Shown: positions 2,813-12,023, counted from the stretch's first letter. The stretch is DNA of 64,000 nucleotides from Bacteroidales bacterium (GCA_049652385.1 JBASDX010000001.1:28698-92697); one strand, 5' to 3'. Translations and numbers: made by a program. The notes: a model not told the origin generated them from the letters alone.

Positions 2813-2934
2813 ACTTTCATTTTTTTTAATTTCGAGTCTTTGCTTTCTGTTAAAAACCATTTTTCCTGTTCGTCACTCCACAGAGTACGCACCTGCTTGT
2901 CCTCAAAGACTTGTATGGATTCTTTTTTACTCAT
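2809..2934 (-). pseudogene. 41-codon ORF; possible truncated remnant of a BRO-N/antirepressor-like gene
   Basis: My own translation is [41 protein letters not shown]. Its ATG overlaps the methyltransferase stop (GATGAGTAA). The N-terminal motif F-x-x-K-x-VR-x-x-W-x-D-E-x-E-K-W resembles N-termini of longer DNA-binding proteins seen in R-M loci; this is from memory, not searched. Confidence 0.25.
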
Positions 2935-4456
2935 CTGTGTCATCTTCCGTGTTTAAATCCATAGGACGAATCATACTTTCAATGAAATCTATTTCTTCTT
3001 GGGTTAAACCGTATTTTTTGTAAAGTTTTTCGTCTGTCCAAGGTTCAGAGAAATCTTGAGCAGGCACAAACTGATACACACCTCTTGCAGCATTTTGAGT
3101 GTTTTTCTTAAACAAAACTAAAAATCGAAAAAATTTAGTGTTAATATAACTAATTACATTCTTTGCAATTATTTCATTCGAATAAGGCCCTATAAGTAAA
3201 TAGGTTTCTGAGCAGACTGTCCACTTCTCTCCAAGAAAGGGTTGTCCCAAAACTCTATACGGGAATGATCCTCTCTCACCATATGCTTTGGCAATAAAAA
3301 CTTTGAATTCTTTTATCCATTCCGTATTTTGGATAATGGATCCCTTATCAATATACCCGTTGTTAGGATAAGAATATATTTTAACACTATTAGCAAATTT
3401 TTTATTTTTAGGTTTTACGGAACTAACTATACCAAAAGGTTTTCTCGAACTAATTTGTTTAAAAAATTGATCTTCCTTCTTTTGAGCTATTTTTCTTATT
3501 ATTGGTATGGACTCATTAAAACGAATAAAGCTATCAGTATTTTTTTCAAGCAAAGGTCTCTTAAGTCTGGATTCCTCTCCTTTTCTTATCGAGACGACCT
3601 CACAATCACCATAATAAGCCTTTTCCCATAGAAAATAACAAACGCCACCTGATATATCAACACCTGGAAAACACTCGGTTGAATCAAAATAATCAACTAG
3701 TTTTGAAATTCTTCTATCATTTAACATTTCCTCCCTGAATTCATCCAATCCTTTTCCTCCAGCGAACCAACGAGATGGGATAATCATTGAAAGATATTTA
3801 GGACTCATTTTTTTTGCCTGTTGAATAAATTTCTGATATATAGGTGTTGCGCTTGTACCCATACCTCCTCCATCACTCAGCTGATAAGGTGGATTGCCTA
3901 TAATGACATCAAACTTCATATTAAATATTTTTTCCGGGTTCTTTGTATGAATAAAGTTATAAGCATAAGTCTCTAACGCATCATCACGGTCGTATACGTC
4001 TTGGCTTGCACCGCAATAAGAACATTTTCCATCTTGCCAGGTATGTTGCATGCGCTTGTAATAGATATTGCCTTGTTCGTTATCAAAGGCTTCACAAACA
4101 GAGTATTTACCATTGGCTGTTTTAGAGCAATAGACACTTCTGCGCGAAAGAAAAGAGGTGAGTTCCGTAATGGCTATGCCATAGAGTTGCTTGCTGAAAA
4201 TATGGTTAATACGTTCTTGCTTGTCGGGTATTTTGGTTTCCAGGCCGTGCATGAGCCTCTTTGCCATCTCTCGCAAGAACACGCCCGTTTTACTTACAGG
4301 GTCCAGAAAGCGGGCGTTTGGATTACTCCACAACTCGGCAGGCAATAAATCCAGCATGTCGTTTACCAAATGGGGTGGCGTAAACACCTCGTCGTTGCTT
4401 AAGTTGGCAAGGCAGGTGAGCACATCGGGATTATAATTTGTTTGCATCATCACCAA
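2927..4456 (-). CDS. Eco57I-family N6-adenine DNA methyltransferase
   Basis: 509 aa. Motif X is [14 protein letters not shown], motif I-like is [12 protein letters not shown], and the catalytic motif IV is IIGNPPYQ. A long C-terminal region could be the target-recognition part. Confidence 0.85.
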
Positions 4457-5093
4457 GTTTTAAGAAGTGAATAAGCGGAAAGTCTTTTATGGGTTCGTCA
4501 ATAGAAGCGGCTTGTCCCTCGTCATTGAAGAGTGAAAATTGATGGGTTTTCTCTACCAAGAACTTAAATACATAATCTCTACGCTTCATCATAAAACCGT
4601 TGACAGCGCTCCATTCTGAAAAAACGATGGGCTCTTTAGTCACCGGATTCGTAAAATCCAGGGCATCGCCCCAAAGAATATTTCTGTTTAACAAGAAACG
4701 AATACTTCGTTTGCATTCCTCTTTACAATTTTCTTTAAACAAAGCGTGGTACCGCTCGTTAAAAATGGTAAATAGGCGCTCTCTGCATTCCCGGGCGTTG
4801 TCTTCTAATATTTCTACTCCATAAATGCTAGATATAGCTAGGACAGCATAACGCTCCCAGTCAAATTGGTTTTTACTGTATTGCCGGTCAACCACACTGA
4901 GTTTCCTTTTGAGTATTTCTGCAAGAAAGTTGCCGTTTCCACAAGCAGGCTCTAAGAAGCGAGAGTCTATGCGTTCCGTTTCATGTTTTACCAAATCAAG
5001 CATTGCATTTACTTCCCGCTCGTTAGTAAACACTTCTCCGTGGTCTGCAACCCTTTTTTTGGATTTTACTTGTTTGCTTGCTTGTTGTGTCAT
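4431..5093 (-). CDS. Methyltransferase-like protein with a SAM-binding half only (no NPPY catalytic motif)
   Basis: 220 aa. [17 protein letters not shown] (motif X-like), [12 protein letters not shown] (motif I), IYGVEI, ILWGDAL. The protein ends without any (D/N)PPY motif. Overlaps the next methyltransferase gene by 26 nt. Confidence 0.6.
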
Positions 5094-5099
5094 TTCGCT

Positions 5100-6929
5100 T
5101 TAATATTCACTAACATCCTCTTCCTCATTGATATAAATACCTTCCTCTTCGTTGCTTTTCTCACGAGCAATGGTTTTCCCCATGGCTTTTTCTATGCGTT
5201 GTAAAATACGCTCTTGCCTGTCTTTGAAAAAGCCATAAAAATCATCTTGATACAGAAAATCCGGATTGACTACATGAGTTTCTAATATTTCAATGAATTC
5301 ATCATCTGAAACATTTAATTTTTTCTTCAGACGATCCAGATATTTACTGGGTGCATCTCCGCTTACAAATCGATTAGTTCTACCCGACAAAGGTGTTTTA
5401 TTGATAATAGAGTCATAGGAACTTCGTGGAATAGCATTCTCCGCTTTTTCGCACCACGCAATAGGAAATATATGATGAATATCTATAGATTCTGAAAAAT
5501 AAGTGCTGAAATCAATTTTTGTCCCAGAGAGCCAGTCACGGGTGTTGTTATCTAATAAGACGGCATAGACTCCTTTGTACGCAGCACTGTTTCTTGTTCT
5601 TAGTGTAAGTAATCGAGACGGAACAAAGTTCGCGTCAAAAATAGTTTTTGGTTCGGGCCCGTTATTACTTATCCAATCTATAACCTGTACAATATCGAGG
5701 GCATATCTTGTTTCGTTGGCAGAACCATATAGTTCTCCAAAAACACCACACCAGAACCAACGCATAAGCTTATTCTTATTGCCGATATTGTCAATTTCAT
5801 TTCCTAATTGTGAAAGAATAGCTGCCATGGGAACCAGTTGAGTCGTGTAAGGAACGTCTCTTGAGTGAAATATGTGGTTTTCAACAAGTATTTTGGATGC
5901 TTTGATAAAACCTTCTGCTACCTGCTCTTTATATTTCAAATAATCGGGAAGTTCCAGATTTAACATTTCCTTTCTCTTTGCGCTTACCGCAGGGAGATTT
6001 TCTTTTTGACCGCTAAGCTCATGATAGATTCTACTCCTGTAGGTGGAGACAAGAGTGACAGCCTGAATAAAATCCGTTTCACTGGTTTTGTCCAATACTT
6101 TGTACGGTTTAAATTGTGTTTTGATATGTAACCAGTCTTCTTTTAAGTCAAATTCTTCAGAAGCAAAAGTGGCGGTAAGGAGCTCAAAGACGGTAAGTGA
6201 TACCCCACCGGTATTGACTTTTTCAAATACTTGACAAACAGCTTCTTTGGGGTTCTCCTTAGTCATTTGAATAACAGGCAGTGAATAATTGTTGAATCCT
6301 AGAATAATTTTTTTGTGAAACTCATTCCAGAATTTGATTTTTTCTTTATCATAATCCCAATACTCAAAAAAAGCAGGAAACCACGTGTCGTATTCATCTA
6401 CCATGCTTACAGGGTACATGAGACTTTCAAATTCCTTTTCTTGTGTTGTGAGATCTAATACAATATCACGCCCGATATTCTCGGTAATTATTTTATTCTC
6501 GTTGATGGAAAAGATGGCTTCCTCAAGATCGGTTCCGGGGTCAAGGGCTTTTTGCATATCAATATAATACCATCTCTTGATTTCATATCCTTTGGCATTT
6601 TTGGTTGTTACAACCTTGTTTGATATGATAGCCTGATATAGAGAGGTAAGACGTTGTTGTCCATCAAGGATTAGCAATTCAGGTTTGCTGGAATTTGTTA
6701 ATGGAGCACCTTCTACCATTTTTGTCTTGAAACGAACAGACTCATTTCCTGTTTCAAGTAACATCACGGCTCCAATAGGGAAGGATTTAGCAACACTTGC
6801 CAATATGCCTTTTATTCGATTGTCATCCCAGACCCATCCTCTCTGAAAATCTGGCAGTTGAATTTTCCCTATATGTATGTTTTTTAGAATTTCATAAAGA
6901 CTTGTCTTCTTTGAATCAAAAGTTTCCAT
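5100..6929 (-). CDS. GmrSD-type enzyme: DUF262 (ParB-like NTPase) N-domain + DUF1524 His-Me finger nuclease C-domain
   Basis: 609 aa. Contains LPDFQRGWVW and the LILDGQQRLTSL (DGQQR) motif, plus C-terminal IDIHHIFP...INKTPLSGRTN. Its stop is 6 nt from the next gene start. Confidence 0.85.
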   Translation of the reverse strand: METFDSKKTSLYEILKNIHIGKIQLPDFQRGWVWDDNRIKGILASVAKSFPIGAVMLLETGNESVRFKTKMVEGAPLTNSSKPELLILDGQQRLTSLYQAIISNKVVTTKNAKGYEIKRWYYIDMQKALDPGTDLEEAIFSINENKIITENIGRDIVLDLTTQEKEFESLMYPVSMVDEYDTWFPAFFEYWDYDKEKIKFWNEFHKKIILGFNNYSLPVIQMTKENPKEAVCQVFEKVNTGGVSLTVFELLTATFASEEFDLKEDWLHIKTQFKPYKVLDKTSETDFIQAVTLVSTYRSRIYHELSGQKENLPAVSAKRKEMLNLELPDYLKYKEQVAEGFIKASKILVENHIFHSRDVPYTTQLVPMAAILSQLGNEIDNIGNKNKLMRWFWCGVFGELYGSANETRYALDIVQVIDWISNNGPEPKTIFDANFVPSRLLTLRTRNSAAYKGVYAVLLDNNTRDWLSGTKIDFSTYFSESIDIHHIFPIAWCEKAENAIPRSSYDSIINKTPLSGRTNRFVSGDAPSKYLDRLKKKLNVSDDEFIEILETHVVNPDFLYQDDFYGFFKDRQERILQRIEKAMGKTIAREKSNEEEGIYINEEEDVSEY

Positions 6930-7491: not shown

Positions 7492-9468
7492 TTAAAGTAC
7501 AGGAATCCCTATTTCTTTCAAATACAGGAACGTAGGGTCGTAAAATGTAGACTGTCGGGTGAGGTCATTTTCGCTTCCTTTGGGTACGACTATTACCATT
7601 CCTTGGCGTGCCCTTGTTAGAAGAACACGGTAAGCATTTATTAAATAGCTTATTCTTTCTGGTTTTCGAATTCGTTGCCATTTGGTACCCACAAATGAGA
7701 ATGTTTCCCAACCAGTTTCTTCATATCTTAAATCCCCATCCCACGTAACGCATGCCCAATCAAGTTCCAAACCTTGGATTTGAAATTCTGTGGCTACGTC
7801 TTCAAGAAAATATGAAGAGCGGACATCATCTTTACCATTTAAAAACCAATGTACCGGATTTATTGGAGTCCTTACATCAATGGCATGTGGTTTCAATCTT
7901 TGGGCCTGAGAAGATACAATTAAGCCATATCGCTCACTGCCTCTAGCTTTTCTTTTCAACCAATCTTTAGCCTTAGATAAATCGCGTGTAATGACAATTG
8001 GGTAGTTGTCTTTTATTAATTCATACATCTCTTTTGCTTTTTCTTTTTCCATATCAAGCAAATACTTCACAAATGAAGAAAGGTTTTCAGCTCTAAATGA
8101 TCGCATTGATACGTTGAGATGTAAATCTACGTTTTGATAGACTTTGGTTATCTGTTGTAACTCTTTTACGGCTTCTTCTGCATCATATTCTGATTCAATC
8201 AGGTTGGGAGAAATATAAACGTTCCAGTGTGGGAATTCATTTTTGATTGCCTTCAACCATTCAGAAATCCCAGCCTCACCGGTATTAATTTCTTGTCCAC
8301 CACCTACTAGGCAAACAATTACAGCCCAATCTTCATGACGATTTAGACATGATATAAGAAACTCGGGTTCAGAGTAATCAAAATTGGGTTGATTCTTTTT
8401 TGACTTCATAAACTTAACAGTCTGTTCTTTATTCCATGCTCTTTGAGCTTCATCAAAAATGGCAACATGATCGTATGGTGGTTTTTGATCAACTAAGTAG
8501 GCGTCTCTGTAATGGTGTATATTTTGGATAAATGTTTTAACACTGGATTTTATTTGTCCTTTAGTAAGTCTCGTATCTGAATCTGCCTGGTTTTTTAGTC
8601 TATCTCTAGTTAATGCTTCTTGCAAAACAGCCACAAGTGGCCCGTTACCCGACAAATAAACACTCATTGTGTTACCGACTTCATCTTGTCGTGTTGTAGC
8701 GATTTTTAATCCAACTAATGTTTTTCCTGCACCAGGAACGCCTGTAACAAAACAAATGATTTTTGAGTGTTCCGATTTGGCCTTTTCTATGATATCAGAT
8801 ATGACTGAGGTAGTCTTTGTTAAGTTAATGGCGCCGGCATCAGACCTTGTGATATTAGCTACTGAATGGTTCTGATATAATGCTATTGCTGCTTCAACGA
8901 TTGTTGGAGTAGGAGAGTAACTACCATAAGCAAACTCTTCTGAATTAATTCTATTCTCATCAAAAAAGAAGGTTAAAGCATTATTAATAACCTCAATAAG
9001 ACCAGATTTGTTAATCTTTAAAGGTTCTAATAGGTTGTCATTATGGGGAGTAGTAATTAGATTGATATACGAATGAGAAGCATCCGTAGCCAGCAAAATA
9101 GGGACAATCAAGGCTTTGTGACTGGGTTCATGAAAATATTTAAGGTCCAATGCGTAATCATATACCTGTTCTATATCTGCTCTTAGATAATTTTTCTCTC
9201 CGACTTTGAATTCAATTAAAAAAACAACCCCTTCAATCAATAAAAGGACATCTACACGTTTACCCATACGCGGAATCGAAAACTCAAAAAAGATAGTTCC
9301 TTCATAGGAATTAAGAGCTTTTTTTAAGAACTCAATTTCATATTCCCAGGCACTGTTTTGTTTAAATAAGGTATCAAAGGTGTTGTTTCGTGTAATCTCT
9401 CCAATAATATCACTTGTGGTTTTTGAAAGAAAGGAAGATATGCTGTCTTTGTAATAATAATTACGCAT
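7492..9468 (-). CDS. PD-(D/E)xK nuclease-like N-domain + DUF2075 (Schlafen-like SF1) ATPase/helicase
   Basis: 658 aa. N-terminal VDVLLL...LIEFK fits a D...ExK motif. Walker A is GVPGAGKT, Walker B is IFDEAQRAW, and C-terminal LLTRARQGMVIVV is SF1 motif VI-like. Confidence 0.8.
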   Translation of the reverse strand: MRNYYYKDSISSFLSKTTSDIIGEITRNNTFDTLFKQNSAWEYEIEFLKKALNSYEGTIFFEFSIPRMGKRVDVLLLIEGVVFLIEFKVGEKNYLRADIEQVYDYALDLKYFHEPSHKALIVPILLATDASHSYINLITTPHNDNLLEPLKINKSGLIEVINNALTFFFDENRINSEEFAYGSYSPTPTIVEAAIALYQNHSVANITRSDAGAINLTKTTSVISDIIEKAKSEHSKIICFVTGVPGAGKTLVGLKIATTRQDEVGNTMSVYLSGNGPLVAVLQEALTRDRLKNQADSDTRLTKGQIKSSVKTFIQNIHHYRDAYLVDQKPPYDHVAIFDEAQRAWNKEQTVKFMKSKKNQPNFDYSEPEFLISCLNRHEDWAVIVCLVGGGQEINTGEAGISEWLKAIKNEFPHWNVYISPNLIESEYDAEEAVKELQQITKVYQNVDLHLNVSMRSFRAENLSSFVKYLLDMEKEKAKEMYELIKDNYPIVITRDLSKAKDWLKRKARGSERYGLIVSSQAQRLKPHAIDVRTPINPVHWFLNGKDDVRSSYFLEDVATEFQIQGLELDWACVTWDGDLRYEETGWETFSFVGTKWQRIRKPERISYLINAYRVLLTRARQGMVIVVPKGSENDLTRQSTFYDPTFLYLKEIGIPVL

Positions 9469-11394: not shown

Positions 11395-11514
11395 TTGGCT
11401 GCAAAGATAGGAAGATCATATGCCATAAAACAAAAAAGAATTTTAAAATTTGTAAAAATGTACATATATTTGTACAATTATATGTGCAAACAATTTGGTT
11501 AAGTAGGAGTGAAT

Positions 11515-11769
11515 ATGTTAACAACAACACTATCAGACTTCAGAAAAGATATGAAGTCATATTTTGATAAAGTAACAATGAATAGTGACACCTTGATTAT
11601 CAACAGAGGTAAGGATACAGGTGTGGTAATCATCTCTTTGGAAGAATATAATGCTTTACAAGCAACTCAGCATGAATTGTCATCAAAGCTTAATGAGCAG
11701 AGGTTAGACGCAGCCATAGAAAAATTGAGGAGTGGAAAATCGTTTTCAAAAGAAATTAACACCGAATGA
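11515..11769 (+). CDS. yefM: Phd/YefM-family antitoxin
   Basis: MLTTTLSDFRKDMKSYFDKV...VIISLEEYNALQ. Its stop overlaps the toxin start (ATGA). Confidence 0.85.
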   Translation: MLTTTLSDFRKDMKSYFDKVTMNSDTLIINRGKDTGVVIISLEEYNALQATQHELSSKLNEQRLDAAIEKLRSGKSFSKEINTE

Positions 11770-12023
11770 GATATATTTTTGTTGACGAGTCGTGGGAAGA
11801 CTATTTGTATTGGCAAGAGACAGACAAAAAAATCTTGGAAAAGATTAACAAGCTTTTAAAAGATATTGCTAGAAATCCGTATAATGGAATTGGGAAACCG
11901 GAGCCATTAAAGTTTAAATATCAAGGTTTTTGGTCTAGAAGAATTTCGCGTGAACATAGGCTTATCTATCAAGTGAAAGATAACGACATACTTATAGCTA
12001 AGTGTAGATTTCATTATGATTGA
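11766..12023 (+). CDS. yoeB: YoeB/Txe-family toxin (ribosome-dependent mRNA interferase)
   Basis: 85 aa. ESWEDYLYWQETDKKILEKINKLLKD...GKPEPLK...GFWSRRISREHRLIY...CRFHY is very close to the E. coli YoeB pattern. Confidence 0.9.
   Translation: MRYIFVDESWEDYLYWQETDKKILEKINKLLKDIARNPYNGIGKPEPLKFKYQGFWSRRISREHRLIYQVKDNDILIAKCRFHYD

Follow-up and report, generated by a model that had tools for sequence, protein, structure and literature searches.

A half-methyltransferase in a Bacteroidales genome is the M1 subunit of a DrdVI-type restriction-modification system and may supply S-adenosylmethionine binding to its partner

Why is a gene for half of a DNA methyltransferase kept directly in front of a gene for a whole one? 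The question is raised by a stretch of 64,000 nucleotides (nt) from a Bacteroidales bacterium (GCA_049652385.1 JBASDX010000001.1:28698-92697), referred to here as the window. On its minus strand, an open reading frame (ORF) of 220 amino acids (aa) at 4431-5093 has the motifs for binding S-adenosylmethionine (AdoMet) and lacks a catalytic motif. It is followed by a methyltransferase gene at 2927-4450 and a nuclease-helicase gene at 172-2700; the three products are called M1, M2 and R. The explanation that best fits the whole of the evidence, at a probability of roughly 0.55, is that the 220-aa protein serves as the M1 subunit in a three-part restriction-modification (RM) system of the DrdVI family and supplies AdoMet binding to M2.

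A translated search of plasmids identified the closest characterised system, on pDrdVI from Deinococcus wulumuqiensis NEB 479. M1 is 45% identical to M1.DrdVI over 201 aa (E 9e-54), M2 is 48% identical to M2.DrdVI over 522 aa, and R is 57% identical to DrdVI R, the pDrdVI helicase protein, over 846 aa. Gene order (M1-M2-R) is the same as on pDrdVI. It is firmly established that the three genes are orthologous to M1.DrdVI, M2.DrdVI and DrdVI, and that the small protein belongs to a DrdVI-type system as its M1 subunit. M1.DrdVI and M2.DrdVI were cloned jointly by New England Biolabs (NEB) in E. coli ER2796; the pair, M1-2.DrdVI, produces N6-methyladenine in GCAGCC (PMC6430315). DrdVI itself has been described as 'a fused translocase and REase' (restriction endonuclease) with a GIY-YIG domain (PMC4996451). 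M1/M2.MaeIV from Methanococcus aeolicus, placed by the REBASE authors in a 'split methylase' family, recognises GCACY (PMC10113651). In both cases the M1 and M2 pair modifies a single adenine of a short asymmetric site (PMC6430315, PMC10113651). The architecture is thus already in REBASE and is mentioned briefly in three methylome papers (PMC6430315, PMC4996451, PMC10113651; Fomenkov et al., Anton et al.). What is new here is the motif pattern across 76 M1/M2 pairs, the in-frame M1-M2 fusion, the solitary relatives with an M1-type half, and the independent exchange of the C-terminal part of M2. REBASE labels DrdVI as type IIG (PMC6430315). In a strict type IIG enzyme the nuclease and the methyltransferase share one chain; in the window R and M2 come from two ORFs that lie 226 nt apart.

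M1 is a stand-alone AdoMet-binding half of a gamma-class N6-adenine methyltransferase, as judged from its sequence. It contains motif X (GEVFT), motif I (EPACGNG, with the GxG), motif II (YGVEILED, with the acid) and motif III (NILWGDAL, with the D). Inspection of the 220-aa ORF found no (D/N)PPY motif IV, and the broader catalytic signature, (D/N/S)PP(Y/F/W) after beta-4, is likewise lacking. This agrees with the first-pass annotation, which had described a half-methyltransferase with motifs X, I and GDAL and no NPPY; there is also a partial Pfam match to MmeI_Mtase (profile positions 18-119 of 259, E 6e-6, slightly under the gathering score). The same annotation took the last 70 or so residues to be an unrelated tail, and that description does not hold. 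This tail is conserved throughout the family, with F158, W161 and R171 present in at least 90% of sequences, the motifs PIxFSEW and KRRDY, and a C-terminal P-x-x-H-[FY]-L. Most of it is also modelled with confidence. The AlphaFold model of M1 is compact (predicted local distance difference test, pLDDT, 90.8; predicted template modelling score, pTM, 0.87) and consists of a Rossmann half from beta-1 to beta-3, a hairpin at residues 157-175 and an ordered C-terminal segment at 200-212; only residues ~181-200 are of low confidence. The hairpin recurs upstream of NPPY in full-length single-chain relatives. These relatives carry both FSEW and NPPY, which rules out FSEW as a degenerate motif IV. Foldseek matches M1 to the N-terminal parts of CamA, BsaXI, MmeI, LlaGI and BrxX with modest E-values, since the query is only half a domain. 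Searches of PDB sequences with M1, M2 and a lactococcal fused enzyme gave nothing useful beyond one weak motif I match to a type I HsdM.

M2 is an Eco57I-family gamma-class methyltransferase of 507 aa (507-509; Pfam PF07669, E 2e-39). Its start is placed at the ATG at 4450 rather than the TTG at 4456, on comparison of its N-terminus with those of homologues. It has an IIGNPPY motif and a C-terminal target-recognition region, as expected of the complete methyltransferase that had been proposed for this gene. Its N-terminal half (N-half) is aberrant: motif I is the variant DPVSKTG, motif II is YGIAI without the acid, and a Cys-rich insert takes the place of motif III. M1 and M2 are paralogous over ~79 aa only (35% identity), and each has its own motif X and motif I region; they are not one gene split by a frameshift, as had also been concluded from the window. 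The odd motif I of the larger enzyme, another feature noticed at the outset, is a property of the family. In 76 M1/M2 pairs, motif I is EPACGxG in every M1 and DPxxK[ST]G in 75 of the M2 proteins; no M2 has GxG. The motif II acid (YG[IV][DE]) is present in 75/76 M1 proteins, and Ala, Ser, Cys or Gly occupies the same position in 73/76 M2 proteins. Motif III (NxxxG[DN]) is found in all 76 M1 proteins and is replaced by the Cys-rich insert in M2. M2.DrdVI follows the pattern, with a Lys-type motif I (DPCTKSG) and a motif II without the acid (FGIGI).

The two genes are rarely found apart. The first three loci looked up already contained a recurrent cassette of M1, an Eco57I methyltransferase and a T5orf172-helicase. 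A scan of one genome per species with M2 as query gave 80 loci, from Bacteroidota, Proteobacteria, Firmicutes, Actinobacteria, Cyanobacteria, Planctomycetes, Spirochaetes, Saccharibacteria, Bathyarchaeia and Woesearchaeota. M1 lies directly upstream of M2 in 75 of the 76 loci with enough upstream room, which answers the first-pass suggestion to check whether the small gene always accompanies this methyltransferase. The lone exception (L074) is an M2 lacking its first ~75 residues, with no helicase gene; no intact Lys-type M2 without M1 was seen. Wherever the flank is long enough to show it, the related genome loci and plasmids that were examined have the same order, M1-M2-R on one strand. One locus that seemed to have M1 and M2 without R (L072) was dropped, as it has an inserted ABC/SMC-like ATPase gene followed by the contig end. 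Plasmid pCRULAC2 of Corynebacterium crudilactis (L100:3000-5278) does keep M1 and M2, with a Tn3 transposase gene in the place of R, abutting the 3' end of M2; the loss of R looks recent. The M1 protein of this plasmid is mislabelled in RefSeq as 'S-layer homology domain-containing protein'.

Fusions give a further view of the pair. A 743-aa protein (P0272; L093:6001-8232, also L094 and L095) joins a complete M1 to a complete Lys-type M2 in one frame through a 6-aa linker, SGGCRK. Several samples contribute the 18 metagenomic contigs that carry it, and behind it lies an intact R gene for a 1004-aa T5orf172-helicase. An in-frame fusion of this kind is classical evidence that M1 and M2 work as a complex. 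On plasmids of Lactococcus, Enterococcus and Leuconostoc, an M1-like gene precedes a gene for a 1461-1474-aa DUF4145-helicase-Eco57I methyltransferase fusion, for example in Lactococcus cremoris pUC047G (L089:1970-7049) and Leuconostoc carnosum pKLC4 (L092:6004-11122). Fusion of R with M2 has thus left M1 as a gene of its own; motif I of the fused enzyme is again Lys-type (INSKTGLY). No PDB chain, LlaGI and LlaBIII included, matches the fused enzyme in sequence, and no published characterisation of it was found.

Proteins with an M1-type N-half that extend to 275 aa or more are few: a region-restricted search found only 350. Among them are rare single-chain methyltransferases of 480-580 aa, in which an M1-type N-half (45-72% identical to M1 proteins, FSEW hairpin included) is joined directly to an M2-type NPPY and target-recognition half. 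In the three contexts examined these relatives are solitary or lie in a phage-like element, with neither M1 nor R nearby. Their N-halves nest at several points in the M1 tree; one of them (P0230) groups with the M1 of locus L025 (support 99/83).

Co-variation was measured by comparing pairwise distance matrices of M1, the parts of M2 and the parts of R (loci L001-L086). M1, the M2 N-half, the R nuclease and the R helicase form one inter-correlated block (r 0.62-0.74); the values for M1 are 0.73 with the M2 N-half, 0.74 with the R helicase and 0.64 with the R nuclease. The catalytic C-terminal half of M2 and its target-recognition domain (TRD) form a second block, correlated with each other only (r 0.37) and not with the first (r ~0). 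A sliding window puts the breakpoint at M2 residue ~180, in the conserved segment at NPPY, so that M2 residues ~180-507 (window 2927-3911) evolve apart from M1, the M2 N-half and R. This independence points to frequent exchange of the catalytic half and TRD as a cassette, by recombination at the conserved breakpoint segment. The system as a whole thus looks like a conserved chassis with an exchangeable catalytic and recognition cassette.

The M1-M2 fusion, the near-obligate linkage of the two genes and their cloning as a unit at NEB strongly suggest that M1 and M2 act together as a complex. M1 is probably an obligate subunit through which AdoMet binding is supplied. In the mechanism we favour, the two proteins would form a 1:1 complex in which M1 gives the canonical AdoMet binding seemingly lost from the M2 N-half, and M2 gives the catalytic NPPY half and DNA recognition. 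The variant M2 N-half, co-evolving with M1 and R, would serve mainly as an adaptor to the motor-nuclease; R would translocate from unmethylated sites and then cut. The grounds for this are that the motifs of the two proteins are complementary, that the half retained in orphan derivatives is of the M1 type and the half lost is of the Lys type, and that intact Lys-type M2 proteins were seen only with M1. Supply or sensing of AdoMet was among the roles that the first-pass annotation put forward for the small protein, and it remains the best reading. A part as specificity partner, also put forward there, is unlikely: M1 carries no TRD and diverges in step with the M2 N-half and R, but not with the catalytic and TRD part of M2. 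A role as second-strand methyltransferase was rejected as well, since M1 lacks the catalytic motif and the complementary strand of the published DrdVI and MaeIV sites contains no adenine.

Several observations weigh against AdoMet supply by M1. AlphaFold folds M2 by itself into a complete canonical gamma-class methyltransferase (pLDDT 87.4, pTM 0.85), and Foldseek matches this model to CamA over the full length (E 5e-18). The N-half of M2 occupies its normal position in the model, which leaves no obvious vacant site for the M1 half-fold. In that N-half, motif X (DEVFTPP) and the Lys are invariant and the D-P of motif I is retained; it evolves as slowly as M1. The invariant motif X and Lys speak for a retained function, and the N-half may still bind AdoMet. 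Active M.TaqI also lacks the first Gly of motif I; the motif I substitution is thus no proof in itself of lost binding. M1 divergence is not tracked by the catalytic half of M2 (r ~0), which disfavours an intimate interface between the two, although the N-half of M2 itself is equally uncoupled from it. Full-text literature searches found no paper that separates the roles of M1 and M2; both reports cloned them jointly.

These observations make room for a distinctly less probable but substantial alternative: M1 would be an accessory or regulatory subunit, and M2 would bind AdoMet and methylate alone. M1 could then be an AdoMet sensor, or a structural adaptor to the M2 N-half, to R or to both, which licenses or tunes restriction much as AdoMet does allosterically in type I, III and IIG systems. 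The completeness of the M2 model and the invariant residues of its N-half speak for this alternative, as does the finding that M1 distances follow the N-half and both parts of R and not the catalytic half or TRD. It also draws on the solitary single-chain forms, which lack R: the combination of a Lys-type N-half with a separate M1 is found only where R is present or recently was. Against this, the features missing from M2 (the motif II acid and motif III, in 73-76 of the 76 pairs) are exactly those kept by M1, and it is the M1-type half, not the Lys-type half, that the orphan derivatives retain. pCRULAC2, moreover, keeps both M1 and M2 after Tn3 displaced R, though this loss may be recent.

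The exchangeable cassette permits a bolder version of the supply mechanism, which we offer as tentative. The chassis would consist of M1, the variant M2 N-half and the GIY-YIG translocase, and the cassette would run from NPPY to the end of M2. The methyl-transferring Rossmann fold would be assembled between two polypeptides, with the AdoMet half of M1 serving the catalytic half of M2. The Lys-type half would be a pseudo-domain that couples to the motor, and engagement of M1 as against the pseudo-half could decide between methylation and restriction.

The junction of the two genes offers a different route to a joint product. The M1 stop codon (TAA, 4433-4431) lies within M2, whose ATG is at 4450-4448, giving an overlap of 20 nt (4431-4450, minus strand). 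Overlaps of 4-26 nt, mostly in one relative frame, occur in 69 of 78 distinct loci, and the other nine have a spacer (168-1307 nt in eight of these). Programmed ribosomal frameshifting in the overlap could in principle join M1 to M2; the overlap is conserved, and P0272 demonstrates that a fused product is tolerated. Such a mechanism is very improbable given that a slippery-type heptamer of any kind is present in only 13 of the 69 overlapping loci, that the length of the overlap varies, that every M2 has an ATG of its own and a conserved N-terminus, and that nine loci have a spacer. The variable overlap and the lack of a conserved slippery site indicate coupling by overlap, not programmed frameshifting. 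The 20-nt overlap in the window is consistent with translational coupling, and co-expression of M1 with M2 is firmly established.

M1 is also firmly established as a functional, selected gene under strong purifying selection. A word-indexed search with M1 gave at least 8000 scored homologues, the best 120 of which all fall within 214-236 aa and share 80-93% identity. When representatives clustered at 50% identity were searched exhaustively, 3549 matched, 470 of them below 1e-30, and nearly all are 200-240 aa. Alignments show conservation over the entire length. Among close relatives the nonsynonymous distance (dN) is 0.11-0.2 and the synonymous distance (dS) is mostly saturated; the median dN/dS is ~0.10. 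The M2 N-half has the same median, and the TRD is much less constrained (0.31). A decayed remnant, the outcome that had been named as refuting a role for M1, is contradicted by the uniform, full-length homologues, the dN/dS and the confident compact fold. The idea that M1 is a truncated leftover methyltransferase, kept at most because its translation aids M2 expression, can appeal to the loss of motif IV and everything downstream and to deletion chimeras of the M1-M2-R operon in metagenomes (P0275-P0277, P0281, P0346), but is the least probable of all in view of the invariant AdoMet-contact motifs and the spread of thousands of homologues over bacterial and archaeal phyla.

The genes lie head to tail on the minus strand in the order GmrSD_N/DUF262, M1, M2, R. 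R (842 aa), the restriction subunit, begins with a GIY-YIG-like T5orf172 nuclease domain (residues 26-105), followed by a superfamily 2 (SF2) helicase/translocase domain (ResIII, residues 122-278), both assigned by Pfam. The PADLOC model PDLC03626, for a fused type IIG enzyme, covers R and M2 together. The M2-R gap (2701-2926) contains a frameshifted remnant of a Bro-N-type gene, recognised by a tblastx match to the Bro-N gene of locus L005 (10737-10970). Intact Bro-N, KilA-N or RhuM genes sit between M2 and R in related loci, so the junction appears to be an insertion hot spot inside the operon.

Upstream, a 609-aa GmrSD_N/DUF262 protein is encoded at 5100-6929 (minus strand; PF03235, E 4e-31), and its gene ends 6 nt ahead of the M1 start. 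In most related loci the upstream position is not occupied by GmrSD; this is a separate type IV-like defence gene and no constant part of the system. The system also has DUF262/GmrSD genes close by in L005 and on a Sphingopyxis plasmid (L099), which suggests that this modification-dependent enzyme and the DrdVI-type RM family are loosely but repeatedly paired. The region around the locus is a defence island. A 658-aa Schlafen-group-3 helicase/DUF2075 protein at 7492-9468 (minus strand) matches PDC-S41, a candidate defence family of PADLOC, end to end (E 3e-288). On the plus strand, 11509-12023 holds two short ORFs that overlap (86 and 85 aa) and look, from their sequences, like a YefM/YoeB-type antitoxin-toxin pair.

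The DrdVI-type RM family has a very wide distribution, occurring in Bacteroidota, Proteobacteria, Firmicutes, Actinobacteria, Cyanobacteria, bacteria of the Candidate Phyla Radiation, archaea and dairy Lactococcus plasmids, and has received passing mention in three methylome papers only. Annotation pipelines name M1 'N-6 DNA methylase' or 'hypothetical', and defence finders mostly see only a type II methyltransferase. Whether M1 has to be co-expressed matters when methyltransferases are cloned to pass restriction barriers and when methylome motifs are assigned to genes. If M1 does supply AdoMet binding in trans, the pair would be a natural two-chain methyltransferase with complementary half-sites, of interest for the engineering of split enzymes and for the balance between methylation and restriction. 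The remaining interest lies in the role of M1, the complementary motif pattern, and the mosaic of chassis and cassette.

The window system differs from DrdVI in the target-recognition part of M2, so its recognition sequence presumably differs too; further differences are the Bro-N remnant in the M2-R gap and the GmrSD gene immediately upstream of M1. A phylogenomic study of GIY-YIG proteins contains no description of the M1-M2-R architecture (PMC1564403). DnmA-YeeB-YeeC of Bacillus subtilis and Vibrio is alike in combining a gamma-class methyltransferase, a separate SF2 helicase and a T5orf172 nuclease domain; it is unlike the window system in that helicase and T5orf172 are in two proteins, the methyltransferase is large and MmeI-like, and no half-methyltransferase partner has been described (PMC9973331).

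The type ISP enzymes LlaGI and LlaBIII share with the DrdVI-type system an ATP-dependent SF2 translocase, a nuclease, a gamma-class adenine methyltransferase and a TRD, as well as an asymmetric site and single-strand methylation. M2 has a Foldseek match to LlaBIII, and in the lactococcal relatives R and M2 are likewise one chain. Type ISP enzymes are single polypeptides with an Mrr-type nuclease and no reported M1-like partner, whereas the window system has three separate proteins, a GIY-YIG/T5orf172 nuclease and an extra half-methyltransferase; it is therefore not of type ISP. Methylation that depends, or may depend, on a paralogous partner without part of the active site is known from METTL3-METTL14, DNMT3A-DNMT3L and the split M.AquI. 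The partner there is either a true fragment or lacking in AdoMet binding. M1, by comparison, keeps the AdoMet motifs and lacks the catalytic half, and M2 still looks like a complete fold.

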